Shown: positions 3,584 to 57,929, numbered from the stretch's first letter. The stretch: DNA of 64,000 nt from Kiritimatiellia bacterium (GCA_045636065.1 JAZTWW010000049.1:5168-69167); one strand, 5' to 3'. Made by a program: numbers and translations. Notes: a model not told the origin generated them from the sequence alone.

Positions 3584-4001
3584 CCCTCCTCATGAGCCAT
3601 ATTGCAGGGACTATCATTATTACGTCCCTTAGGATATCAAGCATTATCGCGACGCGCCCGGTGGGGGCGGACTCGTCGAAGCCGAAGCAGCCGCAGTCGA
3701 TATCGAGATCGCGTATCGCGGCCTGCGTCAGGGCGACGAGAAAGATAGCCAGCATCGCCGTCACGAGAAACGCGGCCTCGCGCCTCCACGGAGTTGCGAT
3801 AAGCATCACACCGGCGATAAGCTCGAGCATCGGCATTCCAAGCGCCAGCGGGCCGATGGCGAATCCGGGGAGCATGTCGAACTTCTCGATTGCATCCGCG
3901 AAGACGGCCGGATCGTCTATCTTCGAGATGGCCGCATAGATGAAAACGCCTCCAAGCGCGAGCCTTAGCACCCACTGGAGGATCTTTGCCTTCTTTGACA
4001 T
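3561..4001 (-). CDS. DoxX/MauE-family membrane protein
   Basis: 146 aa with 4 predicted TM helices. KILQWVLRLALGGVFIYAAISKI resembles the DoxX signature. A CGCFG motif is present in the last helix, as in MauE-like DoxX proteins. Confidence 0.55.
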   Translation of the reverse strand: MSKKAKILQWVLRLALGGVFIYAAISKIDDPAVFADAIEKFDMLPGFAIGPLALGMPMLELIAGVMLIATPWRREAAFLVTAMLAIFLVALTQAAIRDLDIDCGCFGFDESAPTGRVAIMLDILRDVIMIVPAIWLMRRDGNESKS

Positions 4002-4020
4002 TTCAACACCGCCTTAGCGT

Positions 4021-4203
4021 TCAGTCGTCAACGTATTCGTCGATGTCGCCGTCGTCATCGGCCCCGGATGCGCACGATGGCGCATCCCAGAGGCCGAAGA
4101 CGCTCACGCGCCGCTCCTCGTAGACCCTCATGTTGTTGAGGATCCCGAGGACCGCCGCCAATATGACGGCGGATATTATGACCTTGACCTTCATCGGTCT
4201 CAT
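4021..4203 (-). CDS. Small hypothetical secreted peptide (60 aa), possibly spurious
   Basis: ORF with signal-like N-terminus (MKVKVIISAVILAAVLGIL) and acidic C-terminus. Sits between the DoxX gene and the large He_PIG gene. No homology recognised. Confidence 0.2.
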   Translation of the reverse strand: MRPMKVKVIISAVILAAVLGILNNMRVYEERRVSVFGLWDAPSCASGADDDGDIDEYVDD

Positions 4204-7200
4204 TCCGGCATGACGGCGTTAGGGTCGTTGAGGGAGTAGCCCTCTTTGCCCTGGAGAAGCTCCATCACGAACGAGGTGACGCTCTTCTTGGCGACGACCT
4301 TGACGTAATTGAGCACGAACGTGCCGTCCCACTCCTTGAAGCTATTGGCCTCGGAGAAGTACATCACCGTGCTGCCGCTGACGGCAACGCCGTTGTACTT
4401 GCCGCTGAACGTCGCCGTTCCGGCCGCCGCCACCTTGACGGTGAGCGTGTCGAGCTTGTACGTTCCGACGGCCGCCTTCACGAGAGGCGTCGCCTCGGCC
4501 TTGGTGTCCGTCGCCTTGACGGCATCGCGCTGGGCCGTCAGGAGGACGGTCTCTCCGTCCTTCTTGATGAGCGTACCCTGCATCTGGAACGCCGTCGCCG
4601 GGGCGGTCGTATCGAGGACGAGTTCGAGCACGTCGCCCGCCTTCGTCTCGAGCTCCGCAAAGAGCATGCCCTTGCCGTCAAGCTCGTCCCACGACGCGGC
4701 CGAGAACGAATACGTGGCGTCCTGGAGAGTGACCTTCGCCGTGATCTTGCCGGCGGCAGTCACGCTCGCCGTGAAGAGGCCCTTGACATTCTCGGGATCG
4801 ACGTAGTCGCAGTCGGGGCCGTCGCCGCATCCGGCGAGCACCTTGCCCTCGGTGTACGCGAAGCCGTTGAACGTGCCGACGGACGTGGGAAGCGCATTTA
4901 CGGTGATGTTGATGTTGAACACGCTAGAGGTCTTTCCGGCTGTCGTGGTGGCCGTGATCTTGACGGCGGAGGGGGTCGTAAGACCGCTCTTGGCGTTGAC
5001 CTTGGACGGCGTGGTGGGCGTTCCGGAGATGCTGTACTCCTTCGTCTCCTTGTCCTGGACGAGCTTGAGGCCGGCGGGAAGACCTGTCGCCTTCAAGGTG
5101 TTGGCGCCGATGCTCCACGCCTCAACCGGGAACGTCACGGGGACGCCGCTGTAGACGGAGAGTTCAATGGGGTCGGCATCGGGGGCATACGATTCGCCGT
5201 TGAACCAGAAGGCGTAGGGGGCGTCCTCGGTCTTCGTGCAGAAGACGGCCCTGTAAGTCACGTCCTCGGTGCCGGTCGTGAAGGTGTAGGATACGTTTCC
5301 GGAGACGAGCTCTACGCCCTGGTACCAGCCTGTGAAGACGCTGTTCTTCGCGGCCGTGGCCTTGATGGTGACCTTCTTGTTGGCCGGATAGGAGCCGGCG
5401 CCTGTCACGGTACCTGTGGCGGAGGGGTCGTCGTAGCTCCCCGTTTCGAGCGTCACCGTCACGTTCTTCACGAGAATGAAGATCGTCGCGACCTCGGTGG
5501 CGGCGCCGGCCATCTTGGCGGTGAGCGTCACCGTGTAGCCGCCAGCCTTGGTGGGCGTACCCGCGATGCCGGTCGTCTTGTTGTACTTGAGGCCCGTGGG
5601 AAGGCCAGCGACCGTAAGGTTGTACCCCTTCTCGACTTCGGGGACGATAGGATCGATGGCAACTCCGGCCACGTACACGTAGGCGTCCATCTCAGGCGAA
5701 ATGCCTCTGATCTTCTCGCTCGTCATGTTCGGGAACTTGATCGAGACCGTCTTCTTGACGGGGTCCTTGTTCGTCACATTGGTGGCGGAAATCTCGAACG
5801 TGTATTCGCCAGGGGTCGAAAGCGTGCCGGTGACGGTAAGAGACGCCGCATTGAACGTGAGCCCCTTGGGAAGGCCGGTGACGGTCACGTTGGGAAGCGA
5901 AACGGACGTGACGCCGATCTCGACATTGACCTCGCCCGCGTCGCCCGTCGTGAACTCGTCCTCCATGTCGATGGAAAGAGCGTCCTCTTCGGAGTCCGCG
6001 AACGTCGCCTGCCAGGTGGCAGGCGAATCGGCCGCCAGCAGGAAGGTGAACGAGGGCGTACGGTAGTCGAAGCCTTCAATATCCACTGCGTCGCCGTTCT
6101 GGTCGAGCCAGCCGGAGAAGACGCTTCCCTCGGCGGGAGTCGCTGTGACGGTGACCTTCGCGAGAGGCGCATAGGCTCCCTCGCCCGACACCTCGCCCTT
6201 GCCCGTACCGTTCTCCGAGACGGACACGTCGACGTACCTGTACTCGCCGGACTTCACGTAGACGGTCCTGGAGAAGCTTTCAGTCTTGAGCTTGTCGTCG
6301 TCGTTGTAGTAGGCGCCCTTGCCGGTGATCGTGAACGGGCCCTCCTTGCTGGGCGTACCGTATGCGGTGTAGACGGTGGCTCCGTCAATTGTCGTCTTCT
6401 TGAGCGTAAGCCCGGTGGGAAGCCCGGAGATGGCCGTGGGGCCGGTCTTCTCGTAGTACTCGCCGAGAGTGACGCCATCCTCGCCGAGCGATTCGCCGAC
6501 GGAAAGGTTCTCAAGACCGCCGAGATCTACTCCAAGATCGTCCGGGCTGAAGGGATCGACTATCACGAGCGAATTGGCCGTCTCCTTGGAACCGTCCTCG
6601 AATGTGACGGTTGCCGTGGCGACGAACGTGCCGGCCTTCTTGGGGGCGCCCTTGATGAAGTAGCTCCTGTCGCCGTCCTCGCTCTCCTTGGCGAGGCTGA
6701 GGCCGGAAGGAAGCCCCTTCACGGAGATGCTCTTTATGTCGGCGCTGATGCCGAAAAGCGCGTCGATGGGCTCGTCGCCCACATCCTCGCCGTAGGAGCA
6801 GTAGAAGTCGTTCGGCGTGATGTTGCCGGACGCCGTGGGCCTTCCGGAGACCGTCATGACAGCGTAGTCGCTGTACTTGAAGCCGTTGGCGTTCGTGGCC
6901 GTGGCCTTGACGGTGTACACGCCGAGCTTAGAGGGCGTGCCGGAGATGATGCAGACGGGCTCATCCTCTTCATCTACGCCCATCTCGCTCACGAGACCGG
7001 CGGGGAGCCCGGTGAAGGAGACCGTCGGATCGGAGCCGGAATCGAGCGCGAAGACGATCCTGTTGTCTACCTCGACCTCCCTCTTCTCTCCTGTTTCCGG
7101 ATCCTCCTCCTCATAGGTGTAGTAAAGGCTTTCACCCTCTGTAAGCGTCTGGCTCAGCGAAAGCGATGCGTCGAACCTGAGGAAGTCGTCCTTCGCCTCA

Positions 7201-7259
7201 ACATCGGCAAACGACGTCGCGCAGGCGAGAGCGCCCGCAATAGCCATAAGTTTTTTCAT
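4200..7259 (-). CDS. Giant secreted protein with repeated 'putative Ig' (He_PIG / dystroglycan-type cadherin-like) domains and InlB-B-repeat-like modules
   Basis: Start set at MKKLMAIAGALACATSFA (signal peptide; ATG complement 7257-7259, RBS-like AAAGGAAAAGAGG upstream). At least 5 repeats of the motif GLP.GL....TG.ISGTP.K.G.YT. Two G.V.G.G.Y..G..V.L.A.P..G..F.GW modules. Confidence 0.75.
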   Translation of the reverse strand: MKKLMAIAGALACATSFADVEAKDDFLRFDASLSLSQTLTEGESLYYTYEEEDPETGEKREVEVDNRIVFALDSGSDPTVSFTGLPAGLVSEMGVDEEDEPVCIISGTPSKLGVYTVKATATNANGFKYSDYAVMTVSGRPTASGNITPNDFYCSYGEDVGDEPIDALFGISADIKSISVKGLPSGLSLAKESEDGDRSYFIKGAPKKAGTFVATATVTFEDGSKETANSLVIVDPFSPDDLGVDLGGLENLSVGESLGEDGVTLGEYYEKTGPTAISGLPTGLTLKKTTIDGATVYTAYGTPSKEGPFTITGKGAYYNDDDKLKTESFSRTVYVKSGEYRYVDVSVSENGTGKGEVSGEGAYAPLAKVTVTATPAEGSVFSGWLDQNGDAVDIEGFDYRTPSFTFLLAADSPATWQATFADSEEDALSIDMEDEFTTGDAGEVNVEIGVTSVSLPNVTVTGLPKGLTFNAASLTVTGTLSTPGEYTFEISATNVTNKDPVKKTVSIKFPNMTSEKIRGISPEMDAYVYVAGVAIDPIVPEVEKGYNLTVAGLPTGLKYNKTTGIAGTPTKAGGYTVTLTAKMAGAATEVATIFILVKNVTVTLETGSYDDPSATGTVTGAGSYPANKKVTIKATAAKNSVFTGWYQGVELVSGNVSYTFTTGTEDVTYRAVFCTKTEDAPYAFWFNGESYAPDADPIELSVYSGVPVTFPVEAWSIGANTLKATGLPAGLKLVQDKETKEYSISGTPTTPSKVNAKSGLTTPSAVKITATTTAGKTSSVFNINITVNALPTSVGTFNGFAYTEGKVLAGCGDGPDCDYVDPENVKGLFTASVTAAGKITAKVTLQDATYSFSAASWDELDGKGMLFAELETKAGDVLELVLDTTAPATAFQMQGTLIKKDGETVLLTAQRDAVKATDTKAEATPLVKAAVGTYKLDTLTVKVAAAGTATFSGKYNGVAVSGSTVMYFSEANSFKEWDGTFVLNYVKVVAKKSVTSFVMELLQGKEGYSLNDPNAVMPE

Positions 7260-7310
7260 AGCTTGCCTCTTTTCCTTTAAAACCTTGTTGCGTTGCTGCC
7301 TTGCCATAAC

Positions 7311-8138
7311 TCATTCTTCGAGATCGGTGGCGTTTTCGTTGACCCAGGTGCGCGCCGCACCTGCGTTCTGGTACTCGTCGCCCGTCCAGTCCTCGTACTT
7401 GGCGCGGCCTGTCTCCTGGCCCACGACATTGCCGTTCTCGATGACATCGATGATCGTCTCCATGATGAGCCTTTCATCGTCGAGCTGGTCGAGCTGGTCG
7501 AGCATGAACTCGCAGTTGTCCTTTTCCATCACCGTCTTGGCGATGCGGGCGATGTCGGAGGCGAACTGCGCCGCATCGTCGCTGTCCTCAAGATCGTAGT
7601 TGTTCGGATCCATGACGAGCTGTTCGATCTGCTCCTGGGCGGAGAGGGCGACATTCTCGTCAGCGTCGGCGAGGGCCGCCGCAAGCTCCGGGAGGGCCTT
7701 GCGGCCGAAGGAGCCAAGCCCCTGGACGGCGTTCACCCTTACGCGGGGATCGGCCGATGCAAACGCCTGCGACGCCGCGTCAAGCGCGCTTTCAAACGTC
7801 TCCTCGCTCACAGCCCTCTCAATGGCATCGTTTATCGCCATATCCTCGGCGGTATACGGCGCAAGTTCGGGATCGGCCGAAACCTTAGGTTCGGCATTGT
7901 TGCCGCCCTCCTCCTGGACGGGCTGGGCCTCGGCCGACTTTGCGGCCTCCTCCTTGGCCTTCCTCCTAGCCTCGCGCTGGGCCTTTGCCTCGCGGCGCTT
8001 TTCGGCATAGGTCTTCTTCTTCGGCGTTTCGCCGGCCTGCGGCTTTTCCGCCGGGGCGTCGTTCAGATACCAGACGACCCCTGCCGCGCACGCCGCAATG
8101 ACGGCCGCTGCCGCAAGAAGCTTTGCACTTGCCTTCAT
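7311..8138 (-). CDS. Hypothetical signal-anchored protein with a Lys/Glu-rich linker and HEAT-like repeats
   Basis: 275 aa. N-terminal hydrophobic anchor, KKKTYAEKRREAKAQREARRKAKEE charged segment, PRVRVNAVQGLGSFG..ALPELAAALADADENVAL HEAT/PBS-lyase-like repeats. Confidence 0.45.
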   Translation of the reverse strand: MKASAKLLAAAAVIAACAAGVVWYLNDAPAEKPQAGETPKKKTYAEKRREAKAQREARRKAKEEAAKSAEAQPVQEEGGNNAEPKVSADPELAPYTAEDMAINDAIERAVSEETFESALDAASQAFASADPRVRVNAVQGLGSFGRKALPELAAALADADENVALSAQEQIEQLVMDPNNYDLEDSDDAAQFASDIARIAKTVMEKDNCEFMLDQLDQLDDERLIMETIIDVIENGNVVGQETGRAKYEDWTGDEYQNAGAARTWVNENATDLEE

Positions 8139-8157
8139 CTTCTCTCCTTTCTCCGTT

Positions 8158-9312
8158 CTACAGCGAAGCGTCCTCGTCGGGATCCGCCGATACGCCAGAT
8201 GGATCCTCGCTCGGCTTGCTTACCTCTCCGCCGTATGATTCACCTTTTACGACAAGCGTTATCTTACGCTTGACGACCGTCTTGGCAGGGTCGGAACCCG
8301 TCACCGAGACCTCAATCTCATACTTGCCCCTGTCATCGGGGCTGCCCCAGAGGAGACCTCCAAGGCCACTGAGGAAGAGCCCGTCGGGAAGATCCCTGTC
8401 GGTCGTGAACGTGACCGGCCTCGAATCGTCCGAAACGGGAATCCTGATTCTCATGGGTTCGTCAACCCTCACTACAAGCTGCGTCTCTGCGGGGAAATCG
8501 ACGATCGGCGGCTTGACGAGCGCGGCGTCCCTGAAGACGGCCGTGTACATCCCGCATTTCATGTCGTCCTTGACAACGAGCTTCGTGTTCCATCCGGCCA
8601 TCTCTCCGTCAGGATCGCGCCACATGTAGAAGACGCTTCCTTCAGCAGGCTTGGCGATGGCCGTTACATTGCCGCCGTTGTGCAGAAGCCCGTCCTTGGG
8701 CTCCATGCTCACCGTACCTTCGCCCTCGACCTTCGTTTCGACCCTCTTGGCGGTGGCGGACATCATGTCCTTTATGGTCTTGTGCTCGCCCAACGCGAGA
8801 TAGCCTGCAAGAGGCTTGTCGAGGGCCGTAAGAAGCTCCTCTATCGTCTCCTGGAACTTCCCGACCTTCATAAGGCCGCGCCTGCCCATGAAGGCATAGC
8901 GTGAAACTTTGCCTTCCTTGTCAGTGTAGGTCACGACCATCTGCGGATACCCGTGGAGGTTCCACTCGCCCTGATCCTTCAAGGCCGCATCGAGAAGCCC
9001 GGCTGCAAAATGATTACGGTCGATCTTGCCTTTTACGTTCATGTACGCGAGATACGGTTTCCTGTCCTCGCACCAGAGACGGAACGCCTCGCCCTCCATC
9101 ACCTTCTTGAGGCGCGTGCAGTATACGCATGCGTCGGAGGGGCGGGAGAGGAAGAGAACCATAGGTACGCCGTCGCGCTTGGCGGCCGCGAAGACCTCCT
9201 CGACGTTGACGTTCCACTGGCCGGTCTTCACATCGCCCTTCGATATCGTGAAGGCGCAAAGCTGCATGGCGGCGAAAAACGCCGCAGCGGCCGTCAGGGC
9301 AATCCTCTTCAT
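8158..9312 (-). CDS. Secreted protein with an N-terminal thioredoxin-like CxxC module and a C-terminal Ig-like/InlB-B-repeat-like module
   Basis: Start set at MKRIALTAAAAFFAAMQLCA (signal peptide; ATG complement 9310-9312 preceded by GGAGG). The ORF-track N-terminal extension overlaps the upstream gene and is Arg-rich junk. DGVPMVLFLSRPSDACVYCTRL parallels the Trx-like modules of the adjacent giant gene. AKPAEGSVFYMWRD motif. Confidence 0.55.
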   Translation of the reverse strand: MKRIALTAAAAFFAAMQLCAFTISKGDVKTGQWNVNVEEVFAAAKRDGVPMVLFLSRPSDACVYCTRLKKVMEGEAFRLWCEDRKPYLAYMNVKGKIDRNHFAAGLLDAALKDQGEWNLHGYPQMVVTYTDKEGKVSRYAFMGRRGLMKVGKFQETIEELLTALDKPLAGYLALGEHKTIKDMMSATAKRVETKVEGEGTVSMEPKDGLLHNGGNVTAIAKPAEGSVFYMWRDPDGEMAGWNTKLVVKDDMKCGMYTAVFRDAALVKPPIVDFPAETQLVVRVDEPMRIRIPVSDDSRPVTFTTDRDLPDGLFLSGLGGLLWGSPDDRGKYEIEVSVTGSDPAKTVVKRKITLVVKGESYGGEVSKPSEDPSGVSADPDEDASL

Positions 9313-9338
9313 CTTCCCCCTCCTTTCAAACCGGTTGA

Positions 9339-12300
9339 TCACTCTTCCGTAATCACGTTGAGATCGACGGGGATCGACCTCTTGATCTGAAGTCCGCTTA
9401 CAGGCTCCTTCTCGGTGAAGTAGAGCGTACCGCTCGCGAAGGGCCTCGTGACGATATCCTCCGTGCCGTCGCCGCAGCCGCAGTCGTCCCAGCCGGGGAG
9501 AAGCGCGCACTTGTAAGTGCCTGTAAGGTACTTGCCGCTTGAGAACGTGACGCGGGCCGTGCCGGAGACGATGCCTGTCGCCTTGGCGTAGGACATCGTT
9601 ATGACGCCCACCTTGCCGGAAAGGCTGAATCCGCTCGACTTGGCCGTTGCAACGGCGCTCGGGACCGATGCTATCGATCCGTTGATGCCGTCCGCGGCGT
9701 AGCTCGGGTCGATCGAGACCGCGAACTTGCGCGACAGGTAGAGATCCTCGTAGTCGAACATCTCGCATATCTTAAGGGGCGAAAGGCTCTTCGTGAAGTA
9801 CCCGCCGTAGGCGAGAAGCGTCACCGCATACTCGTACCTGCCGTTCGTCTCCCTGTGGAGCATGTAGTTGACGAAGCCGGGGATGTCCTTAATGACCTGG
9901 AGCTGCGATGTGTCGTCGCACGTCTCGGCGGCATCGGCGCAGATCGTGACGGCTATGCCCGTCACATCCTTCTGGGCGCGCTTGAAGATGTAGAGCTTCG
10001 CCTTCTTCGCGTTCTCGGGATTGGCCGTCAAGGACACGGAGCCGTTCACGTACTGGCCGTCGGGGAGATAGCCGACATACGTGACACGCCCGTTTCTGAC
10101 GGCGGCGGTGGATGTCATCGTAAAGGTGATGTATCCCGTGCCGTGAGGCTCATAGATGCTTCCCGCCTCGGCCTCGCCCGCGCAGATGTCCCTGTTGGGG
10201 AGCGTCACCGTGTAGTAGCCCGTGAAGGACTTCCACACACCGGTCTCCTTGGCAGGCGTCTCGTTTACGGTGAGCGGGCCTTCAAAGTAGTTGGAGACGC
10301 CTTCGAGCGCGCCGGAGATCGTTCCCTCGGTGTCAAGGCTGAGGACAAGGGTGGATCCCTTGGAGTTCTTGAGCATCGCAAGGGCCGTCCCCGTTTCGGA
10401 TTCTATGTCCTCCCACGCGCCGGTGAAGGTCGTCACGGTGCTCTCGGTGCTCTGGAACTTTGCGGTGATCCTGTTCTTGGCGGTTACGCTCACCGTGAGC
10501 TCGCCCACGACTATCGTGCCGTCCTCATGGTCGTGGATGACTGCGCACGTGTTGTTGTACGCCTTGTTCGTGTAGGGGTTCTTCTCGGCGGGGTCGTCCA
10601 CGGTGAGGGTGAACGTGGTGGGCGTACCGGTCGTCTTCTTGCCGCCGACAGTCGTCGTGATAGTGAACGAGGCGGTGAACGTACCCTTCACGGTGGGCGT
10701 ACCGGAAAGGACGACAGCCTTCTTGACGCTATCGTACTTGAGCGTCACCCCGGCGGGAAGAGCGCCTGACTTCTTCGTGAGAGTCACCGTGCCGTTCGTG
10801 ACGTTGTAGACGCCGAACTCCACACCAGATGCGAAGTTCTGGTACAGCCCGACATCGTACTCCGTCTCTTCGAAGACGGGGTCGGTGGAGTCGCTTACCG
10901 TAAGCTTGTGGTCAGTTTCGTCGTCAAGCGTCGCGCCGGTGGGGAGCTTCACGGCCTCAAGGCCGAATACGGTGTACTCCGAAGGCGAGAACTGCTGGTT
11001 GTCGAAGAGCGTTACCGTTATCGACTTCTCGCCCGACTCGCCGTCGTTCCACGAGAGGGTGAGATCCTGCGGGATCGTGACGCGGCCCTCCTCGATCGTG
11101 CCGCCCTGCTCCTTTACGGTGAGCTTGACGGACGCAGCTCCGCTCGAACCGCCCGTTCTCTGGACGGCGACGGTGGCTGCACCGTTGAAGCTGAACGCCG
11201 TCTGCTCGGTCTTGACGAACTCGAATTCGCCAGGCTGCCAGATCTGGTACGTGACGACCGTCGCCTCGCCGGCGCCGTACTGCGTGGGAACTACGACATC
11301 GCCGGAATCGGTAGCCCTGAAGTAGAGGCCCTTTCCGTCGACGTCTTCAAGCCCTTCGACGCCTGTTATGTCGCCGATTCCCTGGATGCGGTAGATTTCG
11401 TCCTCGACGACGCGGATCGCAAGGAATCCGGACGACGTCGTGTAGCTCTTGGACGACTCCGCGGGGATCACGAGAACGGACGAGGAGAGCGTGTACGGTG
11501 CCGTTGCGTCGCCAGGATAGGCGAGCGCGAAAAGGTTGGTCTTGTTCGTCGCCGCAGGACGGGTGGCCCTAACGGTCACGTAGTACTCGGCCTCTCCGTC
11601 AACCTCGCAGTCGAGAGCGATATAACCCTGGGAGAGATCGCCAGTCGCCGTCGCAATCTCCTCAAGGTAGTCTTCGCCGTCTTCGTCTTCGGCGACTACG
11701 GAAAGGGCGAGCGTCACCTCGGCAGGGGCGGCAAGCTCGCTGCTGGGCGAAAGCGTCAGTTTCGCCATCGCATCGGCGCCCACCTCCATCTCGTACATGT
11801 CGATCGTATCGGCGCCGGAGAGCGTACCCTTTACGGACTCTTCAAGCTCGAACGAGTTCTCGCACATCGCAAGCTCTGTATCCTCCTCGGCATCGTCTTC
11901 CTTGAGGGCGAGAAGCTCCTCAAGGCGCAGGATCGTCGGGGCGACGCCCGCATTCTTGATGTAGCTGCTCGAGGTGGTGTACTCCGTTATGCGCCCGGCG
12001 ACGGTGCCGTCGTCCCTCACCGCAAAGAACGTGGGAACGCCCGTGCGCTCCTGGTCTGAAAGCTTCCAGTCCTCGTAGGCAAGCTGGTGGTTGCGATCAT
12101 AGATATCCTTCGCATCGGCGCTTGAGATCCCCTTGCGGCTCAGGTACTTTGCTCCCCCTTCAGATGCATAGGAGAGGAGCGTATTGTTGGGATCCTTCCT
12201 GCTGGGAAGATCGATCGTGACGAGCGTAACCTTGGTGTCTCTCGCCCACTCGATGAATTCATCCTGGTACTGGAGATACGACTTCACGTTCGCGCAGTCC

Positions 12301-13637
12301 GTGCACCAGAGAGTGCCTTCCGTTGCGGCGAGGATCCTCCCGCCCTTTGCAAGCGCGGCGTCGAGATCCATCGTCCACTCGCCGTAATCGAAATCCTCGC
12401 CGATCCACTTGGGGTTGTCGATCGATGTGGCGACGGGCGCGATGAACTCGATATCCGTCTCGCCGACGGTTTCGTCGCCGTCCTTGAGAGCGATGGAGAC
12501 CTTGTTGCCGGCCGTCTTGTCGGCATCGGCGAACTCGACAGTCACGACCTTGTTTGTGACATCCTTCGCCCAATCGACGGCGACGACCTTCTCGACCGTA
12601 TCACTTCCAGGGTTGCCTGCAAGAGTCCTTCCCGATGTACCTGCAAGGACCGCGGGAGCCTTCTTGTAGGTGACGACGATAGTCTGGGAGAATGTGTCCT
12701 TCACGTCACGGACGAGATCGAGGTCGAGCGAATCGACCGTAGGCTCGGCCTCAAGGACGCCAGGCTCAACCACAAAGCTGCCGCCGAGATACGGGGCCTC
12801 GACAAAGCCAAGCTCAGCCTCGTCAAGGACTGCGCCCTTCGCGTTGAACGCCCTGAAGGTGACGTTCGACCCAGGCACGTATTCGCTTCTCTTGATCGAG
12901 ATCTTGAGCGTCTTGGACGTTTCGGAAGCCGCCCAGGCAACAACGTTCGTCTCGACTTTGCCAGAGGGATACGTGACCGTCAGATTCTGGTTCGTGGCGC
13001 CGACCTTTTCGCGCACAAGCTCAAGCTCCACGTCCCTCGCCTGGTCGGTGGACTGGTTCGGGAAATACATGAACTCGGGATCGACGGACTCAATCGTTCC
13101 GCCCGGGAACACGTCGACCTCATACTCGCCTGCGTACATGTCGCAGACGTTTATGAACTGCTGCGCAAGAGTACCTTTCCTCGCCGCCGCAGGAATCGTG
13201 GGATCGCTCGAGCGGCCCGTGAACCTGATAAGAGTCTTGCCCTTCCAGTACACGGCGCAATAGGGCCACCTCGTGCTGTCCGGCGGCTTCGCGAACGCCT
13301 TTATGGTCGAACCCTCTCCGCCTTTGCCGTATCCGAACACGAAAACGTACTTCTTCGCTTCCTGCCAGTTTATTATCGTCGAGGTGGCACAGGCCGTCTC
13401 TAGCTTCTTGCACTGGCCGCAGCTCGGGTCGGCCCAGAAGACGATCATCGGAATGCCGTTCTCGTCCGCCAATTTCTTCGCGGCGGAGAAATTCGTGTTC
13501 CAGACGCCCGGCTCGACGGGAAGGTCGTCTGAGATGATCATTCCTGGCGCATTCGGAAGCGTCAGGGCGTTAACGGCAAACGATGCCGCCATTGCAAGCG
13601 CCGCAAGGACGCCGCGTATACTCGTCTCTCTCGTCAT
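9339..13637 (-). CDS. Giant (1432 aa) secreted protein with two thioredoxin-like CxxC modules plus beta-sandwich/Ig-like repeats
   Basis: Signal peptide MTRETSIRGVLAALAMAASFAVNA. Module 1: NGIPMIVFWADPSCGQCKKLE. Module 2: GGRILAATEGTLWCTDCANVKSYL. Remainder is Thr/Ser/Val/Gly-rich beta-strand repeats. No sorting signal recognised. Confidence 0.7.
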   Translation of the reverse strand: MTRETSIRGVLAALAMAASFAVNALTLPNAPGMIISDDLPVEPGVWNTNFSAAKKLADENGIPMIVFWADPSCGQCKKLETACATSTIINWQEAKKYVFVFGYGKGGEGSTIKAFAKPPDSTRWPYCAVYWKGKTLIRFTGRSSDPTIPAAARKGTLAQQFINVCDMYAGEYEVDVFPGGTIESVDPEFMYFPNQSTDQARDVELELVREKVGATNQNLTVTYPSGKVETNVVAWAASETSKTLKISIKRSEYVPGSNVTFRAFNAKGAVLDEAELGFVEAPYLGGSFVVEPGVLEAEPTVDSLDLDLVRDVKDTFSQTIVVTYKKAPAVLAGTSGRTLAGNPGSDTVEKVVAVDWAKDVTNKVVTVEFADADKTAGNKVSIALKDGDETVGETDIEFIAPVATSIDNPKWIGEDFDYGEWTMDLDAALAKGGRILAATEGTLWCTDCANVKSYLQYQDEFIEWARDTKVTLVTIDLPSRKDPNNTLLSYASEGGAKYLSRKGISSADAKDIYDRNHQLAYEDWKLSDQERTGVPTFFAVRDDGTVAGRITEYTTSSSYIKNAGVAPTILRLEELLALKEDDAEEDTELAMCENSFELEESVKGTLSGADTIDMYEMEVGADAMAKLTLSPSSELAAPAEVTLALSVVAEDEDGEDYLEEIATATGDLSQGYIALDCEVDGEAEYYVTVRATRPAATNKTNLFALAYPGDATAPYTLSSSVLVIPAESSKSYTTSSGFLAIRVVEDEIYRIQGIGDITGVEGLEDVDGKGLYFRATDSGDVVVPTQYGAGEATVVTYQIWQPGEFEFVKTEQTAFSFNGAATVAVQRTGGSSGAASVKLTVKEQGGTIEEGRVTIPQDLTLSWNDGESGEKSITVTLFDNQQFSPSEYTVFGLEAVKLPTGATLDDETDHKLTVSDSTDPVFEETEYDVGLYQNFASGVEFGVYNVTNGTVTLTKKSGALPAGVTLKYDSVKKAVVLSGTPTVKGTFTASFTITTTVGGKKTTGTPTTFTLTVDDPAEKNPYTNKAYNNTCAVIHDHEDGTIVVGELTVSVTAKNRITAKFQSTESTVTTFTGAWEDIESETGTALAMLKNSKGSTLVLSLDTEGTISGALEGVSNYFEGPLTVNETPAKETGVWKSFTGYYTVTLPNRDICAGEAEAGSIYEPHGTGYITFTMTSTAAVRNGRVTYVGYLPDGQYVNGSVSLTANPENAKKAKLYIFKRAQKDVTGIAVTICADAAETCDDTSQLQVIKDIPGFVNYMLHRETNGRYEYAVTLLAYGGYFTKSLSPLKICEMFDYEDLYLSRKFAVSIDPSYAADGINGSIASVPSAVATAKSSGFSLSGKVGVITMSYAKATGIVSGTARVTFSSGKYLTGTYKCALLPGWDDCGCGDGTEDIVTRPFASGTLYFTEKEPVSGLQIKRSIPVDLNVITEE

Positions 13638-14743
13638 TTATCTGCCTCCTGCCCACGATTCGCGGGCGGGTTCAATTTCTCGTTTAAAATCTGCTTGCCG
13701 TACGGGTATTCAAGCCTGGCCTTAACCACAAGATCCCTGATGCGTTCGTTGAGAAGCTTGGCCCTGTACTCCTTCATCTCCTCGGCCATGACCGTCTCGG
13801 CCGTCGGGATCTCGAGAAATTCCGGAAGCTGGAAGAATACCCTTGAAATCTCATACCTCTGGGGCTCGGTATCGGTGACGTTCATAAGCTTCATGATCAT
13901 AAGGCCGTTGTCGCCTTCGATGGGCGGAGAGAAATCCCCGGGCTTCATCTCTTTGAGGAGCCTTACTACCTCATCGTCACCTGCGAGCTGCCCGAGCTCG
14001 AAAAGCCCCCACTCGCCACCGCAGCCTTTGCCGTCGTCGTCCTCGGTGTATTTTTCGGCAATCTGCGCGAAATCGGCGCCTGCACTGATCTCCTCCCAGA
14101 CGTTCGTTGCACGCGCAAAGACGAGCGTATTCGTGGCCTGGGCGATTTCATTGTATCTTTCAGCAGTTGAAATTCTTTCCTCCACAAGCTCCTCGGGGAT
14201 CTCCAAGGGGCTCTTTTCATATTCCGCCTCATCGATCGCCGCCACAAGGGCCTCCATAGCGATCTGCGCGTCAAGAACTCCCTGAAGCTCCACGGGGAGA
14301 GACGCCTTCAAATCATCATATCCCTTCTGCGGAGGTTTTCTGTACATCTTGAAAGCCCTCTCCCTGTATTTTGCGAGGCTTTCTTCACTCGGGACAAGTC
14401 CACTCTTGAGCGCATATCCTTCAATTGCGGCCATCTGCACGAGACCGGCCGGAGCCTGGCTTCTTATGGTACGCTCGATTCTCGCCCTCTCCTGATCGTC
14501 CATGGCGCCTTTGCGCCTATTGGACTGCAGAAGAACCCTCAAAGCAACGCTTCTTTCAAGCACGCCCTTCGTAATGGGCGTTCCGTCAACTACTATGACG
14601 GCATCGGTATCTTTAAGGCCATCGTATGTTGCACCTTCAACAGGCGTCTGTTCCGGAAGGGCGTTTGAGCTGCCTCCCGCATCCCTTTCGCCGCACCCGG
14701 CCAGAATCCCTGCAACTAGAATCGCCGCAAATATCCTCTTCAT
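13634..14743 (-). CDS. Parvulin-type peptidyl-prolyl cis-trans isomerase lipoprotein (SurA/PrsA-like)
   Basis: Start at MKRIFAAILVAGILAGCG (lipobox; ATG complement 14741-14743). C-terminal parvulin motif FAQIAEKYTEDDDGKGCGGEWGLFELGQL..DFSPPIEGDNGLMIMKL. Confidence 0.7.
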   Translation of the reverse strand: MKRIFAAILVAGILAGCGERDAGGSSNALPEQTPVEGATYDGLKDTDAVIVVDGTPITKGVLERSVALRVLLQSNRRKGAMDDQERARIERTIRSQAPAGLVQMAAIEGYALKSGLVPSEESLAKYRERAFKMYRKPPQKGYDDLKASLPVELQGVLDAQIAMEALVAAIDEAEYEKSPLEIPEELVEERISTAERYNEIAQATNTLVFARATNVWEEISAGADFAQIAEKYTEDDDGKGCGGEWGLFELGQLAGDDEVVRLLKEMKPGDFSPPIEGDNGLMIMKLMNVTDTEPQRYEISRVFFQLPEFLEIPTAETVMAEEMKEYRAKLLNERIRDLVVKARLEYPYGKQILNEKLNPPANRGQEADK

Positions 14744-14872
14744 CTTTTCCAGCCTTTCGGTAGGGTGCCTTTTTTTGCTAATGAGAAGGCTACGGAGCTT
14801 ATCACTACCGTAGCCTTCCATTGTCTACGGCTTTCGCCGTATCAACCAACGGTTGTTACACCGTAATCAGCT

Positions 14873-15649
14873 TCAGACATCGGAGCCGCTAGCCGACGTG
14901 AACTTCTTGGGAAGGATCGCGGAGAGGCCACCCTTCTTGGCGAACTTCTTGGCAGCGGACTTGTCCCACTTGAGGGACCAGGTGCCGTAAGCGGCGGTGA
15001 GCTCGGTCTGGCCGGCATCGTCGGTGCAGATCATGAACGTACCGACTTCCGTCGTGACAGGATCAGAGCAGGAAACCTCGGTCTCGCAGTCAGCCTTGGT
15101 CTTGGTGCCGGCGAAGTTGCCGGAGAGGCTCTTCACGAGAGCGCTCTTCTTGTCCCAGCTGCCGAAACCGGCGAGGCGGAGAGCATAGTTGTCGCTCGTG
15201 TAGGTACCAACGGCCTCAACGACCTTGCTCTTCTCAGTGGTCTTGCCACCGATGCGGTCAACGAAATCCCAAGCGAGAGCGGCGCCAGTGTCCTCCTCGT
15301 AGGTCTTGCCATCCCAGAAGATGGGCGTGAGACCTTCGAACGCCTCAACGCACTCGCAAGCATCGCTGCAAGCTTCGGCGTCGGTCACGAGGCTCCAGGC
15401 ACCATCAGCACCCTCGGTGCCGGCATAGAGGTAACCAGCGACCTTGGCGGAGGCCTTCTTGCGGTAGCAAACGACCTCGGGATCGCTGCAGGAGACTTTC
15501 GTCTTCTTGGCGATGGGAGCCGTGGTCTTGATGCTGAACGAAACCTTGTACACGCTAACGCAGGTGTAGGTCGTAGGATCGCTGCAGTTGTCGCTAGCGA
15601 AAGCACCAACAGTGGCGGCCATCGCAGCTGCAATCATGAGCTTCTTCAT
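14873..15649 (-). CDS. Hypothetical Cys-rich secreted protein
   Basis: 258 aa. Signal peptide MKKLMIAAAMAATVGAFA. About 14 Cys in CSDP/CxxxC contexts (NCSDPTTYTC, VSCSDPEVVC, CSDACEC, VSCSDPV). Confidence 0.5.
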   Translation of the reverse strand: MKKLMIAAAMAATVGAFASDNCSDPTTYTCVSVYKVSFSIKTTAPIAKKTKVSCSDPEVVCYRKKASAKVAGYLYAGTEGADGAWSLVTDAEACSDACECVEAFEGLTPIFWDGKTYEEDTGAALAWDFVDRIGGKTTEKSKVVEAVGTYTSDNYALRLAGFGSWDKKSALVKSLSGNFAGTKTKADCETEVSCSDPVTTEVGTFMICTDDAGQTELTAAYGTWSLKWDKSAAKKFAKKGGLSAILPKKFTSASGSDV

Positions 15650-18082: not shown

Positions 18083-20470
18083 TCAGTCCTCGTCGTCGGC
18101 GAGGTCCTTCTGCACGGGCTTGTCGCCGGATGCGGTCTTGCCGCTTGTGCGCTTTACGCCGCCTGGGGCGTAGGGTGAGTAGCCGTGCTTCGGCGAGTAG
18201 CCGTAGCCGCCGTACTTGGAGTAGCCGTACGTGTTGCCGGTCTGCGAGAACGCGCTGCCGCCAAGCTCCACGTCGTTGACGATGACGCCGATAACCGTGG
18301 CGCCGGCCTCCGCGAGACTGCGGCTTGCGTGGCGGATCGGTTTGAAGCGCGTCCTGTCCGGGCAGCAGAGGATCATGACGCTATCCACCATGGATGCGAG
18401 CGTCATGACGTCGCCGACGATGCCGTAAGGCGGCGAGTCGATGATTACGCGGTCGTAGTTGGCCCTGGCCCACGCGAAGAACTCGGGAACGACATGGCTT
18501 CCCATGATGCTCGCGGGGTCGACGCCCTCAGGAGGAAGCGAGCAGATGATGTCGAGGTTCTGCACGCCGCTCGGGTTCACGATCGACTGGAAATCGACCT
18601 TCTGCAGGTCGGTCGCCTTCTGGAGGCAGTGCGAGAACGAATGCGCCTCATCGATGTTGATGTTCCAGACGCGCTGGATGCGGGGACGGCGAAGGTCGAA
18701 GTCGACGAGAAGCGTCTTCTTCGCGGCCTGCGCGCTTGACGTTGCAAGCGAGCAGCTTGTGATCGTCTTGCCTTCGCCAGGCTGCGTGCTCATGAGAAGA
18801 AGCACCTGGCTCGAACCGCGGTAGCGCGGCGAGTCGAGGAGGTTTCTCAAGCCGGCGACGGCTTCTGCGAACTGCGAATACTTCTCCTCGGAGATGAAGC
18901 GCGCAACCTGCTCGCGCTTCTTGCGCCTGACGTGCGGAAGGACCGCGAGCACCTTGAGCGAGAGACGCCCTTCGATGTCGTGGAGGCTGACGATCGTATC
19001 TTCGAGGTGGTCGAGGACGAGAACGAAGAGAAGCCCGAAGCCGAGGCTGAGGACGATGCCGACGGCGAAGATGAGGATCGGGTTGGGGAGAACCGGCTTC
19101 GTGGGCGTCGTCGCGGGGCGCCCGATGCGCACGATCTCGTTGTTCTGCTCGGCGCGGATGCGCGCCTCGTTCTCGCTCTGGAGGAGGCTCTTGTAGAGCG
19201 TGTCGGCGACCTCCTGCTCGCGGGTCAGCTGCTGGAAGCCGCTTTCGGCCGCGATGATGCGCTGCGCAAGGGCGGCGCTCTCCGCGCGGACGCGCTCGGA
19301 CTTGCCGCGGAACTCGGCGAGCTGGTTCTTGTACGCCTGAAGGTTGCCCTTCGCCGTTGCAAGCGCGCGGACGACCGCATCGACGAACTGCTGCTTGTAG
19401 ACGTCGAGCTGCTTCTGCTTGAGGATCACCTCAGGGTGCTGCTTCGTGAGCGTCGTAAGAAGCGAGTTGCACTCCATCTGCGCCGTCTGGTACGTGTCGT
19501 ACGCCTTGGCGATTTCGCTTGAACGCGGAACTGCCGTAGGAAGCGCGCCGAAGTCCTCGGGCGTCTCCTGCGCGGCTTCGAGAACCTTCACCCACTCCTC
19601 GCCGGCCGTGACTTCGCTTTCAAGCCTCAGGATCTCGGCCGTCGTCTTGGAGAGGGTCTGGTTGAGAAGCTCCTGCTCGGCGCGCATGTTGTCGAGCTTG
19701 TTCGCGGTGCGGAAATCGAGGAGCTGCTTGGATACGCGCTCGACGGTACGCCTCTGCTTCTCGACCTGCTCGTGCACCTGCGTGACGGCCTTGTCGCACC
19801 TGAGCTTGTTCTCCTCGTCGGTGAAGGCCTCGATCGCCTGCGCATACGAGTTCGCAAGGCTCGCCGCGAGGTTGGCGGAGGGGCTTCTCACGGCGATCGT
19901 GATAAGCCTCGAGTGGCGGACGAGTTCAAGTACGCTGTCGGCGAGCGTCGTCATGAGTTCGCCGTCTGTGACGGTGCTCGCGGGGTAGTCCGCACGGTAC
20001 TGCTGGATGATCTTCGTGAGGATCTTATCGCTGCGCCAGTCGGAAAGGCGGGTGTTGAAGACTTCCTCGTAGCTGTTGCCGAAGTCCGGCGTATCGACCA
20101 TGCCGACGCCGGCGAGGCCGCCGGACTGCTGGGGACGGCGCATGTCGATCGTGAACTCGCTCTTCGCCTCGTATACCGTCTCGGAGATGCGGTAGACGGC
20201 GAATGCGGCAACAAGGCCGATAAGAAGGAACACGAGAATCGATATCCACCTCTGGCCGACGACCCTCAGAATGCGCCCGATCGTGATCGTACCGACGAGC
20301 GAATCGGGATCCTGGTCCTGGTTAGCGCCGCCGCCGTAGTAGTACGGTGCGGCCTTACCGCCGGAGCTGCCGTAGTAGTACGGAGCCTTGGTGCTCCCGT
20401 AGTAGATCGGGGAGTTCTTTGATGTGCCGTAGTAGAGCGGTTTCTGTCCGTATGTCGAATCAGCGGCCAT
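18083..20470 (-). CDS. Polysaccharide co-polymerase / tyrosine autokinase (Wzc/GumC-like). Has both N- and C-terminal Tyr-rich clusters.
   Basis: 795 aa. Wzz-like N-domain with TM (ILVFLLIGLVAAFAVY), coiled-coil, second TM, then C-terminal P-loop kinase domain (MSTQPGEGKTITSCSLA; VIIDSPP). C-terminal YGYSKYGGYGYSPKHGYSPY. N-terminal PLYYG/PIYYG/PYYYG/PYYYG repeats. Confidence 0.85.
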   Translation of the reverse strand: MAADSTYGQKPLYYGTSKNSPIYYGSTKAPYYYGSSGGKAAPYYYGGGANQDQDPDSLVGTITIGRILRVVGQRWISILVFLLIGLVAAFAVYRISETVYEAKSEFTIDMRRPQQSGGLAGVGMVDTPDFGNSYEEVFNTRLSDWRSDKILTKIIQQYRADYPASTVTDGELMTTLADSVLELVRHSRLITIAVRSPSANLAASLANSYAQAIEAFTDEENKLRCDKAVTQVHEQVEKQRRTVERVSKQLLDFRTANKLDNMRAEQELLNQTLSKTTAEILRLESEVTAGEEWVKVLEAAQETPEDFGALPTAVPRSSEIAKAYDTYQTAQMECNSLLTTLTKQHPEVILKQKQLDVYKQQFVDAVVRALATAKGNLQAYKNQLAEFRGKSERVRAESAALAQRIIAAESGFQQLTREQEVADTLYKSLLQSENEARIRAEQNNEIVRIGRPATTPTKPVLPNPILIFAVGIVLSLGFGLLFVLVLDHLEDTIVSLHDIEGRLSLKVLAVLPHVRRKKREQVARFISEEKYSQFAEAVAGLRNLLDSPRYRGSSQVLLLMSTQPGEGKTITSCSLATSSAQAAKKTLLVDFDLRRPRIQRVWNINIDEAHSFSHCLQKATDLQKVDFQSIVNPSGVQNLDIICSLPPEGVDPASIMGSHVVPEFFAWARANYDRVIIDSPPYGIVGDVMTLASMVDSVMILCCPDRTRFKPIRHASRSLAEAGATVIGVIVNDVELGGSAFSQTGNTYGYSKYGGYGYSPKHGYSPYAPGGVKRTSGKTASGDKPVQKDLADDED

Positions 20471-20477
20471 AGTTGTC

Positions 20478-21905: not shown

Positions 21906-21941
21906 CTTACGCTAACAGAGGATAGGAATCCACCAGTCGCA

Positions 21942-57923: not shown

Positions 57924-57929
57924 GCTGAT

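Follow-up and report, generated by a model that had tools for sequence, protein, structure and literature searches.

A putative MauE-linked thiol-disulfide system around a giant protein with two thioredoxin-type modules in a Kiritimatiellia bacterium

Introduction

DsbA has a CPHC-type active site and a thioredoxin (Trx) fold that is interrupted after beta-3 by a large helical domain. CxxC dipeptides of the xH or xY type are typical of oxidases and isomerases, such as DsbA, PDI, and DsbC, and not typical of reductases. In Gram-positive bacteria, the extracytoplasmic Trx-fold oxidoreductases Etrx, SdbA, and MdbA, which include surface-exposed or anchored lipoproteins, serve the folding of secreted and surface proteins and pilus assembly. 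They are small single-domain enzymes with VKOR or CcdA, not MauE, as membrane partners, and none of them is known to be embedded in a giant repeat protein.

A 2026 preprint shows that MauE forms disulfides in the manner of DsbB through a CXC active site; MauE can replace Escherichia coli DsbB, and its CXC pair is essential. Its proposed quinone site consists of a conserved Lys on transmembrane segment (TM) 1 and a Glu on TM2 (bioRxiv 10.64898/2026.03.05.709764). Trx fusions make up 8.2% of InterPro MauE entries, and an earlier report mentioned in the preprint suggested that MauE might be a reductase (bioRxiv 10.64898/2026.03.05.709764). DsbH, by comparison, is a reducing enzyme (PMC5193440).

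Here, we analyze a gene string in a 64,000-nucleotide stretch of Kiritimatiellia DNA (the window), in which a first-pass annotation had pointed to CxxC modules in two adjacent secreted proteins; both open reading frames (ORFs) and their motifs are where it had placed them. The string resembles the MauE + MauD/DsbA systems (bioRxiv 10.64898/2026.03.05.709764) in its four-TM MauE protein with CGC-FG in the TM3-TM4 loop. It resembles MauE-Trx fusions in encoding a Trx-fold CxxC protein, which in 13 relatives is fused to MauE via a fifth TM, the same architecture as that of the VKOR-Trx fusions in the literature. Unlike in the MauE + MauD/DsbA systems, the partner is a Thioredoxin_7-type module with two Ig-like domains rather than a MauD/TlpA-like or DsbA-like protein. 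Furthermore, the window lacks a methylamine dehydrogenase context, the fusion is split with two other genes between its halves, and MauE has conserved accessory genes on either side, for a 60-aa TM and a 231-aa protein.

Results

The string spans 15649..2888 on the (-) strand, its neighboring genes overlapping or tightly spaced and all on one strand, and comprises the following features.

14873..15649, (-), secreted Cys-rich protein, 258 aa (signal peptide, sequence; no Pfam family)
13634..14743, (-), parvulin-type PPIase lipoprotein with SurA/PrsA-like N-domain (Pfam, lipobox)
9339..13637, (-), secreted giant, 1432 aa: Trx1, Trx2, beta-rich body, C-terminal CGC domain
13104..13532, (-), giant Trx1 module, residues 36-178; CGQC 13410..13421, cis-Pro-position P125 (WPY)
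12438..13097, (-), two giant beta-sandwich domains (Calx-beta/Ig-like), residues 181-400 (AlphaFold, Foldseek)
11868..12425, (-), giant Trx2 module, residues 405-590; WCTDC 12294..12308, cis-Pro-position P535 (RTGVPTF)
9342..10610, (-), giant C-terminal domain, ~420 aa; CGC 9474..9482
8158..9312, (-), small protein, 384 aa: Trx1-type module, Flg_new_2-like domain, He_PIG
8803..9240, (-), small-protein Trx module, residues 25-170; CVYC 9118..9129, cis-Pro-position P123 (GYP)
8272..8742, (-), small-protein beta-sandwich pair; Flg_new_2-like 8599..8742, He_PIG 8272..8472
7311..8138, (-), membrane-anchored HEAT-repeat protein (HEAT_2 match, N-terminal hydrophobic segment)
4200..7307, (-), He_PIG/Flg_new_2 giant, 1035 aa (Pfam He_PIG, Flg_new_2)
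4021..4203, (-), single-TM ORF, 60 aa, kept directly upstream of MauE/MauE-Trx
3561..4001, (-), MauE/DoxX four-TM membrane protein (Pfam MauE); CGC-FG motif 3687..3695
2888..3583, (-), membrane-anchored acidic helical protein, 231 aa, without Cys, kept directly downstream of MauE/MauE-Trx

Scanned with HMMs in all six frames, the whole 64 kb contained exactly three Trx modules. Trx1 of the giant matched Thioredoxin_7 (PF13899) with 32.0 bits, above the gathering threshold of 27; this family was also matched by 10/10 giant homologs (E <= 0.01) and by eight of 10 isolated Trx2 modules. The window Trx2 alone was sub-threshold, with no Thioredoxin_7 match and Thioredoxin_9 at E 0.018, as was the small-protein module alone (Thioredoxin_7, 15.2 bits); these two were assigned to the superfamily through profiles, not through their own Pfam scores. 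In profile-profile comparison by hhalign, the small-protein family aligned with giant Trx1 over 143 columns (99.5% probability, E 1.1e-22), and Trx2 matched Trx1 with 96% (E 3e-9), in agreement with the annotated shared N-terminal module and its second, internal copy in the giant. AlphaFold models have a beta-alpha-beta-alpha-beta-beta-alpha topology, that of the small protein being of low confidence (pLDDT 65, built on a 4-sequence alignment). The first Cys caps the N terminus of helix 1 in each module (C73 before helix 74-83, C445 before 446-456, and C62 before 63-71), and P125, P535, and P123, invariant or nearly so, each directly precede a strand (beta-3). Both Cys of each CxxC pair are invariant in all homologs checked. 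Because of the profile matches and the invariant Cys pairs, the similarity between the small protein and the giant is not due to chance. Judged by profiles and models, all three are genuine thioredoxin-type redox modules with a predicted role in thiol-disulfide exchange, which agrees with the initial reading of the CxxC motifs as Trx-fold active sites.

In both sequence and structure, the three modules come closest to members of the DsbH/Thioredoxin_7/Thioredox_DsbH clan (2ju5, 3fk8, 7tkv, AGR2/3, and TXNDC12). The Trx2 profile matched chlamydial DsbH (2ju5, E 1.9e-8), and the Trx1 profile matched S. aureus DsbA, AGR3, TXNDC12, 3fk8, and, weakly, MdbA, which like Etrx and SdbA is an extracytoplasmic Trx-fold oxidoreductase, as predicted for the window modules. 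Common to DsbH and the window modules are a compact Trx fold, CxxC, and a cis-Pro loop, and DsbH too comes from a PVC-group bacterium. However, DsbH is a free 15-kDa periplasmic reductase, whereas the window modules are embedded in multidomain proteins of 384 and 1432 aa, Trx2 has an extra helical insertion, and the NCBIfam DsbH model (NF043050) scored the small protein at 19.2 bits, far from its cut-off of 190 bits, and did not match the giant. That DsbH, the closest solved Trx2 relative, is a reducing enzyme speaks against an oxidative scheme. Identity with DsbA was considered and rejected: Trx1 and the small-protein module lack the large helical insertion after beta-3, and Trx2 has an insertion of ~40 residues at the equivalent place, but a WCTDC site and a match to S. 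aureus DsbA at only E 2e-3. Pfam DSBA did not match the modules.

The giant reads VWNTNFSAAKKLADENGIPMIVFWADPSCGQCKKL around the CGQC of Trx1 and GTLWCTDCANVKSYL around the WCTDC of Trx2. Its parts follow in the order signal peptide, Trx1, two beta-sandwiches, Trx2, a further beta-rich region, and the C-terminal CGC domain. The family is unnamed and comprises at least 317 clusters, mostly from Kiritimatiellia, with the Trx1 CxxC present in 147/147 members and the Trx2 WCxxC in 155/155 (W444, C445, and C448 invariant). CGYC, CAHC, CIHC, CGHC, and CSHC, mostly of the xH or xY type, prevail in Trx1, and the CGQC and CTDC of the window are minority variants. The helical insertion of Trx2 (residues 495-532) contains invariant LL, G, Y, and R residues. 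The sandwiches between the modules (AlphaFold strands 181-398) resembled NCX1 CBD12, RbmA, and transglutaminase barrels in Foldseek (E about 1e-9 to 1e-7), and Calx-beta was matched in 4/10 giant homologs. The Ig-like/beta-sandwich body annotated for the giant is therefore retained, albeit of a kind that has no He_PIG or Flg_new_2 match (Pfam, E <= 0.1). The C-terminal domain, for which no relative was found among PDB sequences or Pfam, ends in an invariant LPGW-x2-CGC...PF..G (W1383, C1386, C1388, P1399, F1400, and G1403), and in about 136/143 family members LPGW is succeeded by two closely spaced Cys.

The small protein reads QWNVNVEEVFAAAKRDGVPMVLFLSRPSDACVYCTRL and has 384 aa plus stop, not 385 aa as annotated from the same ORF coordinates. 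A hydrophobic segment at the N terminus, either a signal peptide or a membrane anchor, is followed by the Trx1-type module, the Flg_new_2-like domain (18.8 bits, under the 23.6 cut-off; the homolog P0014 carries PF18998), and He_PIG (24.3 bits, just above the cut-off of 24). C62, C65, Y122, and P123 are invariant in its family, the CxxC cysteines being kept in all 15 members. In Foldseek, the Trx module matched Trx 2lst, DsbH, and AGR3, and the beta-sandwich domains matched cadherin, Rib, SraP, and dystroglycan domains. An InlB-B-repeat-like motif, claimed for both Trx proteins, is present in this one (AKPAEGSVFYMW, residues 220-231, inside the Flg_new_2-like domain) and in the He_PIG giant, but neither a regex search nor Pfam at E <= 0.1 detected it in the Trx giant.

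The product of 3561..4001 matched Pfam MauE with 105.4 bits (cut-off 27), as expected from its DoxX/MauE annotation. Of its four hydrophobic segments, those at 78-96 and 117-135 enclose C103-G-C105-F-G; in the sequence, K27 comes just after TM1 and E60 lies within TM2. It is 48% identical to the MauE portion of a 454-aa protein of locus L001, which joins MauE to a small-protein homolog. Single-ORF MauE fusions account for 13 of the 15 small-protein relatives, including the sole distant homologs from the protein search (P0013 and P0014) and 10/10 metagenome relatives. All 13 have an SCGCFG motif in common, which is combined with Cx[YHF]C in 10/10 metagenome fusions, and in the fusions a fifth hydrophobic segment precedes the Trx module. 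By sequence, the small protein is the stand-alone counterpart of the C-terminal part of these fusions. Since 13/15 relatives are fused to MauE and the window MauE lies in the same tight string, the small protein most likely serves as the redox partner of this MauE, and MauE probably acts as a quinone-linked oxidant of Trx1-type modules. The oxidative-folding theme initially seen in this neighborhood is strengthened by these nearly ubiquitous fusions and by the ability of MauE to replace DsbB (bioRxiv 10.64898/2026.03.05.709764).

Upstream of the giant, the order of Cys-rich protein, parvulin lipoprotein, and giant is fixed in at least 17 Kiritimatiellia loci, and the whole string is syntenic in locus L035. 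The Cys-rich protein, whose gene opens the conserved string and lies directly upstream of PPIase and giant in these loci, contains 10 Cys rather than the 14 counted earlier; C22, C54, C94, C100, C194, and C208 are kept in 14-17 of 17 homologs. It is a candidate disulfide substrate. The PPIase assignment was confirmed by Pfam (Rotamase, 39.8 bits; Rotamase_3; SurA_N_3) and, from the start at 14743, by the lipobox LAGC within MKRIFAAILVAGILAGC. In the conserved loci its gene directly precedes that of the giant, and in the window its stop codon overlaps the giant start codon (13634..13637).

Discussion

We lean, with moderate confidence, toward reading the string 15649..2888 as an extracytoplasmic thiol-disulfide system around giant envelope or surface proteins. 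MauE, DsbB-like by homology, would pass electrons from a thioredoxin-fold partner to quinone. This partner would be the 384-aa protein, whose counterpart in most relatives forms the C-terminal half of the MauE polypeptide itself. The N-terminal hydrophobic segment of the 384-aa protein would correspond to the fifth TM helix of the fusions, which would place its CxxC on the same membrane side as the CGC loop of MauE. The oxidized CVYC module may introduce disulfides into exported proteins, as do DsbA or MauD, and the two Ig-like domains may project the module from the membrane or bind clients. Giant Trx1 could likewise be charged by the MauE route, considering that it is of the same subtype and carries mostly xH/xY dipeptides family-wide. 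With the DsbH-like Trx2 (WCPDC type, helical insertion) two beta-sandwich domains away from Trx1, we infer that the giant might be a tethered PDI-like foldase with one oxidizing and one isomerizing or reducing site, possibly acting together with the parvulin lipoprotein, to which it is translationally coupled. Clients of the system might include the Cys-rich protein of the same string, in which three Cys pairs are conserved, and the invariant CGC at the C terminus of the giant itself.

The comparison with PDI (a-b-b'-a') and DsbC is an analogy, as no homology between giant and PDI was detected beyond the Trx fold. The giant has two catalytic-type Trx modules on one chain with two non-catalytic spacers between them; CGHC and CGYC are frequent in Trx1 of the family, and, as in PDI, the residue before the cis-Pro position is aromatic (Y-P). 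In contrast to PDI, the spacers are beta-sandwiches and not Trx-like b domains, and ~850 further residues, including the CxC domain, are present.

Alternatively, MauE and the small protein might be a housekeeping DsbB/DsbA-type pair that lies beside the giant by chance, the giant modules serving a separate purpose. We regard this as unlikely. In its favor, most giant loci have no MauE in their flanks: within sampled giant flanks it occurs solely in the lineage of the window (L035) and in L001, and it was not found within about 7-10 kb of flank at the other giant loci. The link between giant and MauE is thus not universal. Moreover, a cassette of 60-aa ORF, MauE-Trx gene, and 2888..3583 homolog stands as a separate unit on short contigs. 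However, the MauE-fused module shares its subtype with giant Trx1, as seen in the hhalign result above and in the match of the L001 fusion to Trx1 of the L002 giant (E 1e-14). Furthermore, two genomes as divergent as those of the window and L001, with giants ~29% identical, both retain MauE in the cluster, and in L037 a further Trx1-bearing protein adjoins the giant.

Somewhat less probable still is a reductive role, in which the modules, and Trx2 above all, would be maintained in the reduced state in the manner of chlamydial DsbH, DsbD-gamma, or TlpA and act on envelope disulfides or on external substrates, for example, disulfide-linked host or algal polymers. The affinity of Trx2 to DsbH would fit such a role, but xH and xY dipeptides are atypical for reductases, the DsbH model gave 19 bits against a cut-off of 190, and no electron importer of the DsbD, CcdA, or ScsB type was present among the ORFs scanned in the window. 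In addition, modules of the Trx1 subtype occur in one polypeptide with MauE, and MauE behaves as an oxidant (bioRxiv 10.64898/2026.03.05.709764).

It is tempting to speculate that the Trx modules, in cis or on sister giants, join C-terminal Cys pairs into a disulfide-linked protein layer resembling the cysteine-rich outer-membrane complex known from Chlamydia, likewise a PVC lineage. The near-constant LPGW..CxC pair, several co-encoded giants with common C-terminal body segments, the small Cys-rich protein conserved alongside the giant, and the affinity of Trx2 to DsbH are in line with this idea. Nevertheless, we consider it doubtful, given that companion Calx-beta giants have no CxC tail and only three conserved Cys, and that the fold of the C-terminal domain has no PDB-sequence or Pfam relative. 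A structural or metal-binding role of non-catalytic CxxC pairs, for which the Trx-fold relatives AGR2 and AGR3, acting mainly as binding proteins, offer a precedent, is very improbable, because both Cys, the Trp preceding those of Trx2, and the cis-Pro-position proline are kept in every member, and the dipeptide between the Cys varies freely, a pattern typical of catalytic sites.

Homologs of the 60-aa ORF occur in L035 (56 aa), in L001 (61 aa), and upstream of 7/10 metagenome fusions, and those of the 231-aa protein, which had no Pfam or NCBIfam match, in L035, L040, L042, L013, L027, and L028. The HEAT-repeat protein (HEAT_2, E 6.8e-6, 26.7 bits, just under the 27.7 cut-off) has homologs in L004, L006, L011, L013, L018, L024, L035, and L037; in L013, the HEAT gene leads straight to the 2888..3583 homolog. 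The He_PIG giant (He_PIG, 79 bits; Flg_new_2, 47.5 bits) is related in its C-terminal region to the body of the Trx giant (blastp to residues 954-1103, E 2.5e-5), and multiple co-encoded giants share C-terminal body segments.

Organization of the gene string

The minus strand of the window carries, from 15649 down to ~2888, a densely packed gene run with the following features.

14873..15649, minus strand, Cys-rich secreted protein, 258 aa
13634..14743, minus strand, parvulin PPIase lipoprotein (lipobox LAGC), its stop overlapping the giant's start
9339..13637, minus strand, the Trx giant, secreted, 1432 aa
8158..9312, minus strand, the small protein, secreted, 384 aa
7311..8138, minus strand, membrane-anchored HEAT protein
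4200..7307, minus strand, He_PIG/Flg_new_2 giant
4021..4203, minus strand, 60-aa ORF with a single TM segment (MRPMKVKVIISAVILAAVLGILNNMRVYEERRV...), overlapping the stop of the He_PIG giant
3561..4001, minus strand, MauE
2888..3583, minus strand, membrane-anchored acidic protein, 231 aa

A six-frame HMM scan of the 64 kb found thioredoxin (Trx) modules exactly three times, once in the small protein and twice in the giant (N-terminal Trx1 and internal Trx2). The motifs quoted in the first-pass annotation are all present, namely, CVYC at 9118..9129 in the small protein and CGQC (Trx1) at 13410..13421 and WCTDC (Trx2) at 12294..12308 in the giant. Of the three proteins for which an InlB-B-repeat motif was described there (the two Trx proteins and the He_PIG giant), the Trx giant gave no match to it in motif and Pfam searches, and the other two have it; the product of 14873..15649, annotated as a "14-Cys" protein, has 10 Cys by our count. 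Promoter and terminator counts in the window were not above chance, and evidence for an operon is thus restricted to gene spacing.

Thioredoxin fold of the three modules

All three modules are thioredoxin folds, as had been proposed from the sequence, and the Thioredoxin_7 HMM, profile alignments, AlphaFold, and Foldseek all bear this out. Giant Trx1 matched Pfam Thioredoxin_7 at 32.0 bits (threshold 27), and 10/10 giant homologues likewise matched this family. The small-protein module alone scored 15.2 bits, below the Thioredoxin_7 threshold; its profile aligned with giant Trx1 over 143 columns (99.5% probability, E 1.1e-22). Profile alignment of Trx2 with Trx1 (96%) included the helix preceding the first strand, GxW..(D/N)(L/F)..A, and the Trx2 profile matched chlamydial DsbH (2ju5; E 1.9e-8) and 3fk8 (E 1.9e-4), with 8/10 Trx2 copies matching Thioredoxin_7. 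Single-sequence PDB searches with the three modules gave only marginal matches plus a spurious nanobody match (E 1e-4), so that profiles were needed to place the modules.

Modeled with AlphaFold, residues 1-600 of the giant (pLDDT 75.5, ~85 within the Trx parts) show two Trx topologies, at residues 50-176 and 425-577, with two beta-sandwiches in between. Each module has its first Cys at the helix 1 N-cap and a proline, P125 or P535, directly before beta-3; Trx2 additionally contains a helical insertion at residues 495-532. The model of the small protein is weaker (pLDDT 65) and has the same topology as the giant's Trx modules, and Foldseek related it to thioredoxin, DsbH, and AGR3, with cadherin, Rib, and dystroglycan-type domains in the tail. 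The giant was also considered as a DsbA, a DsbH (NCBIfam), or a DsbD protein, and it belongs to none of these families.

Conservation and size of the giant family

Conservation of the cysteines, which the first-pass annotation had suggested as a check, is strict, since the CxxC pairs of both Trx1 and Trx2 are invariant in the giant homologues. Ten homologues share C73, C76, P125, W444, C445, and C448, together with C1386 and C1388 in a C-terminal motif, LPGW..CGC..PF..G. Among 155 family members examined, the Trx1 CxxC is present in all 147 that have the module and the Trx2 WCxxC in 155/155, and ~136/143 have a close Cys pair after LPGW. The Trx1 dipeptide is variable, mostly xH or xY (CGYC, CAHC, CIHC, CGHC, CSHC), and the Trx2 site is mostly CPDC, CPYC, or CPWC.

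Word-indexed searches, which gave just 10, 4, and 4 matches, made the family appear rare. This idea was dropped after an exhaustive profile (HMM) search returned 4646 matches at E < 1e-3 and 317 at E < 1e-30; counted at the latter threshold, the family comprises at least 317 clusters at 50% identity. Nearly all of the best 150 matches are 1000-2100 residues long, with Trx2 at about residue 270-570. Some members (P0019-P0023) contain three or four Trx modules, such as the 1863-aa P0019 with the order Trx1-Trx2-Trx1-Trx2, and P0020, P0021, and P0023 have two WCPxC modules each. Exact sequence look-up found no record of the window giant, and searches of PDB sequences and Pfam with its C-terminal 420-aa domain found no relative. 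The family has no name in any source examined, and literature searches on Kiritimatiellota and thioredoxin or on Trx-bearing adhesins yielded nothing relevant and no description of it.

Probable pairing of the small protein with MauE

MauE was established only in 2026 as a third widespread DsbB-type enzyme: MauE proteins of Caldithrix and Desulfatibacillum can take the place of DsbB in E. coli, the CXC pair of the conserved CXC-FG motif is essential, and Trx-superfamily fusions make up 8.2% of InterPro MauE entries (March 2026 preprint, 10.64898/2026.03.05.709764). According to hydropathy, the window MauE has four TM segments, and its CGC is located between segments three and four.

Relatives of the small protein are very scarce. 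Beyond one close homolog, protein searches found only MauE/DoxX fusions of 526 and 536 aa, which match 84-91% of the query at 38-40% identity. In the cluster of a relative, L001, a 454-aa gene likewise encodes MauE joined to a small-protein homolog (E 5e-26); its MauE part is 48% identical to the window MauE, and the L001 giant is ~29% identical to ours. A metagenome scan added ten further relatives; in 10/10 of them, MauE and Trx are joined in a single ORF, and both SCGCFG and Cx[YHF]C are present. In such fusions, a fifth hydrophobic segment ahead of the Trx module is equivalent to the N-terminal hydrophobic segment of the small protein. Given the recurrence of MauE-Trx-Ig-Ig fusions in relatives, the arrangement in the window is a split version of that protein. 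The pairing of MauE with Trx is of a known kind, recently established, to which the small protein adds a member with an unusual Ig-like tail and in a split state.

The 60-aa ORF at 4021..4203 keeps its place directly ahead of the MauE or MauE-Trx gene in L001, in the 72% identical relative L035, and in 7/10 of the metagenome fusions. Its product may serve MauE as a small accessory subunit. The product of 2888..3583, for which Pfam and NCBIfam searches gave no match, begins with a TM anchor and continues through a very acidic linker into a helical C-domain, a layout resembling that of the HEAT protein (7311..8138); it contains no Cys. Its homologs lie directly downstream of MauE (L035) or MauE-Trx fusion genes (L040, L042) and close to giants in three other loci (L013, L027, L028).

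Taxonomic range and synteny of the giant

A scan of species-representative genomes placed the giant at 32 loci, nearly all in MAGs of Kiritimatiellia sampled from the rumen, the gut, or the environment, with a few partial matches in Lentisphaerae, Victivallales, and Calditrichia. The order Cys-rich protein (~255 aa), PPIase, Trx giant recurs in at least 17 loci, where one or two Calx-beta giants (~1350 aa) usually follow the Trx giant. Six Cys of the Cys-rich protein are each kept in 14-17 of 17 homologs. L035 reproduces the entire gene string of the window. Most giant loci showed no MauE within the sampled flanks, where it was seen only in L001 and L035, and the notion of MauE as a universal member of the cluster was abandoned. 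The Calx-beta companions as disulfide substrates are likewise unsupported, having only three conserved Cys and lacking the tail motif.

Individual loci contain additional genes. L037 encodes an extra 525-aa protein (L037:8365-9942) with the same Trx1 module, 46% identical to Trx1 of the L037 giant. Its C-terminal domain recurs in the Peptidase_C10 protein next to it, and the 525-aa protein is separated from the PPIase by a Wzy_C (O-antigen ligase-like) gene. In L001 (L001:4051-7047), three genes absent from the window lie upstream of the conserved triad of Cys-rich protein, PPIase, and giant; they encode another SurA-like PPIase, a Ser/Thr protein kinase, and an oxidoreductase that depends on FAD/NAD(P) (Pyr_redox_2/HI0933-like).

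A possible role in envelope disulfide formation

The gene string combines three homologous Trx-fold CxxC modules with a MauE whose CGC-FG site is intact; the small-protein family is fused to MauE in relatives, and the synteny of the giant with the parvulin lipoprotein and Cys-rich protein is conserved. MauE is known to oxidize a Trx-fold partner (10.64898/2026.03.05.709764). The small protein is probably this partner and would oxidize exported clients, and giant Trx1, which is of the same subtype, could be charged in the same way. The DsbH-like Trx2 would provide a second activity, possibly isomerizing or reducing; DsbH is a reductase (PMC5193440), and neither DsbD nor CcdA was found among the ORFs scanned in the 64-kb window. 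The giant could then act similarly to a tethered PDI, a resemblance by analogy only, working with the PPIase on clients such as the co-encoded Cys-rich and giant proteins or its own C-terminal CxC.

A far-reaching extension, which we consider improbable, is that Trx giants are previously unrecognized envelope machines specific to Kiritimatiellia and neighboring PVC bacteria. Here, a 1,000- to 2,000-residue scaffold would carry two chemically distinct catalytic Trx modules, a MauE-coupled oxidase type and a DsbH-like one (three or four modules in some), and a C-terminal CxC relay. Together with the dedicated parvulin lipoprotein, it would fold and disulfide-cross-link giant and Cys-rich proteins into a redox-controlled protein layer, the equivalent in free-living bacteria of the cysteine-rich outer-membrane complex of chlamydiae.

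To our knowledge, the natural partners of MauE are essentially uncharacterized. This locus supplies a concrete putative one, a Thioredoxin_7-type module with Ig-like tails, known fused and split, that is directly testable in the published E. coli complementation assays. From the same locus emerges a large family of giant secreted proteins that has no name and whose members come mostly from Kiritimatiellia of gut, rumen, and environmental origin. Its two catalytic-looking Trx modules are absolutely conserved, for which we found no precedent described among giant repeat proteins. Kiritimatiellia are abundant, barely cultured polysaccharide degraders, and if the giant is a PDI-like tethered foldase or cross-linker, it would offer new insight into envelope building under anoxic conditions.

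Other features of the window

The remainder of the window includes the following genes.

18083..20470, minus strand, Wzz/GNVR tyrosine-kinase co-polymerase
21942..23135, minus strand, outer-membrane beta-barrel
24150..24839, minus strand, Poly_export/SLBB protein
34796..35968, minus strand, radical SAM protein with SPASM domain
49119..50243, minus strand, T2SSG-like pseudopilin
50273..51607, minus strand, T2SSF
55552..57207, minus strand, Eco57I-type methylase
57204..57965, minus strand, XhoI-family endonuclease

A type II secretion/type IV pilus-like block (42249..51607, minus strand), which also has several N_methyl prepilin-type proteins, could be an export route for the giants; the adjoining 1112-aa protein (42249..45587, minus strand) has no Pfam match. 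The minus-strand stretch 55552..63740 is low in GC (~51-55%, versus ~61% elsewhere in the window) and resembles a restriction-modification or defence island that was acquired; two of its ORFs, 58205..59320 (371 aa) and 59427..63740 (1437 aa), both on the minus strand, gave no Pfam match. An exopolysaccharide export set (18083..24839, minus strand) lies directly upstream of the housekeeping genes preceding the giant cluster. Radical SAM proteins of the SPASM type include anaerobic sulfatase-maturating enzymes, and the SPASM protein, together with a flavodiiron protein at 51672..52847, is consistent with an anaerobic Kiritimatiellia bacterium.
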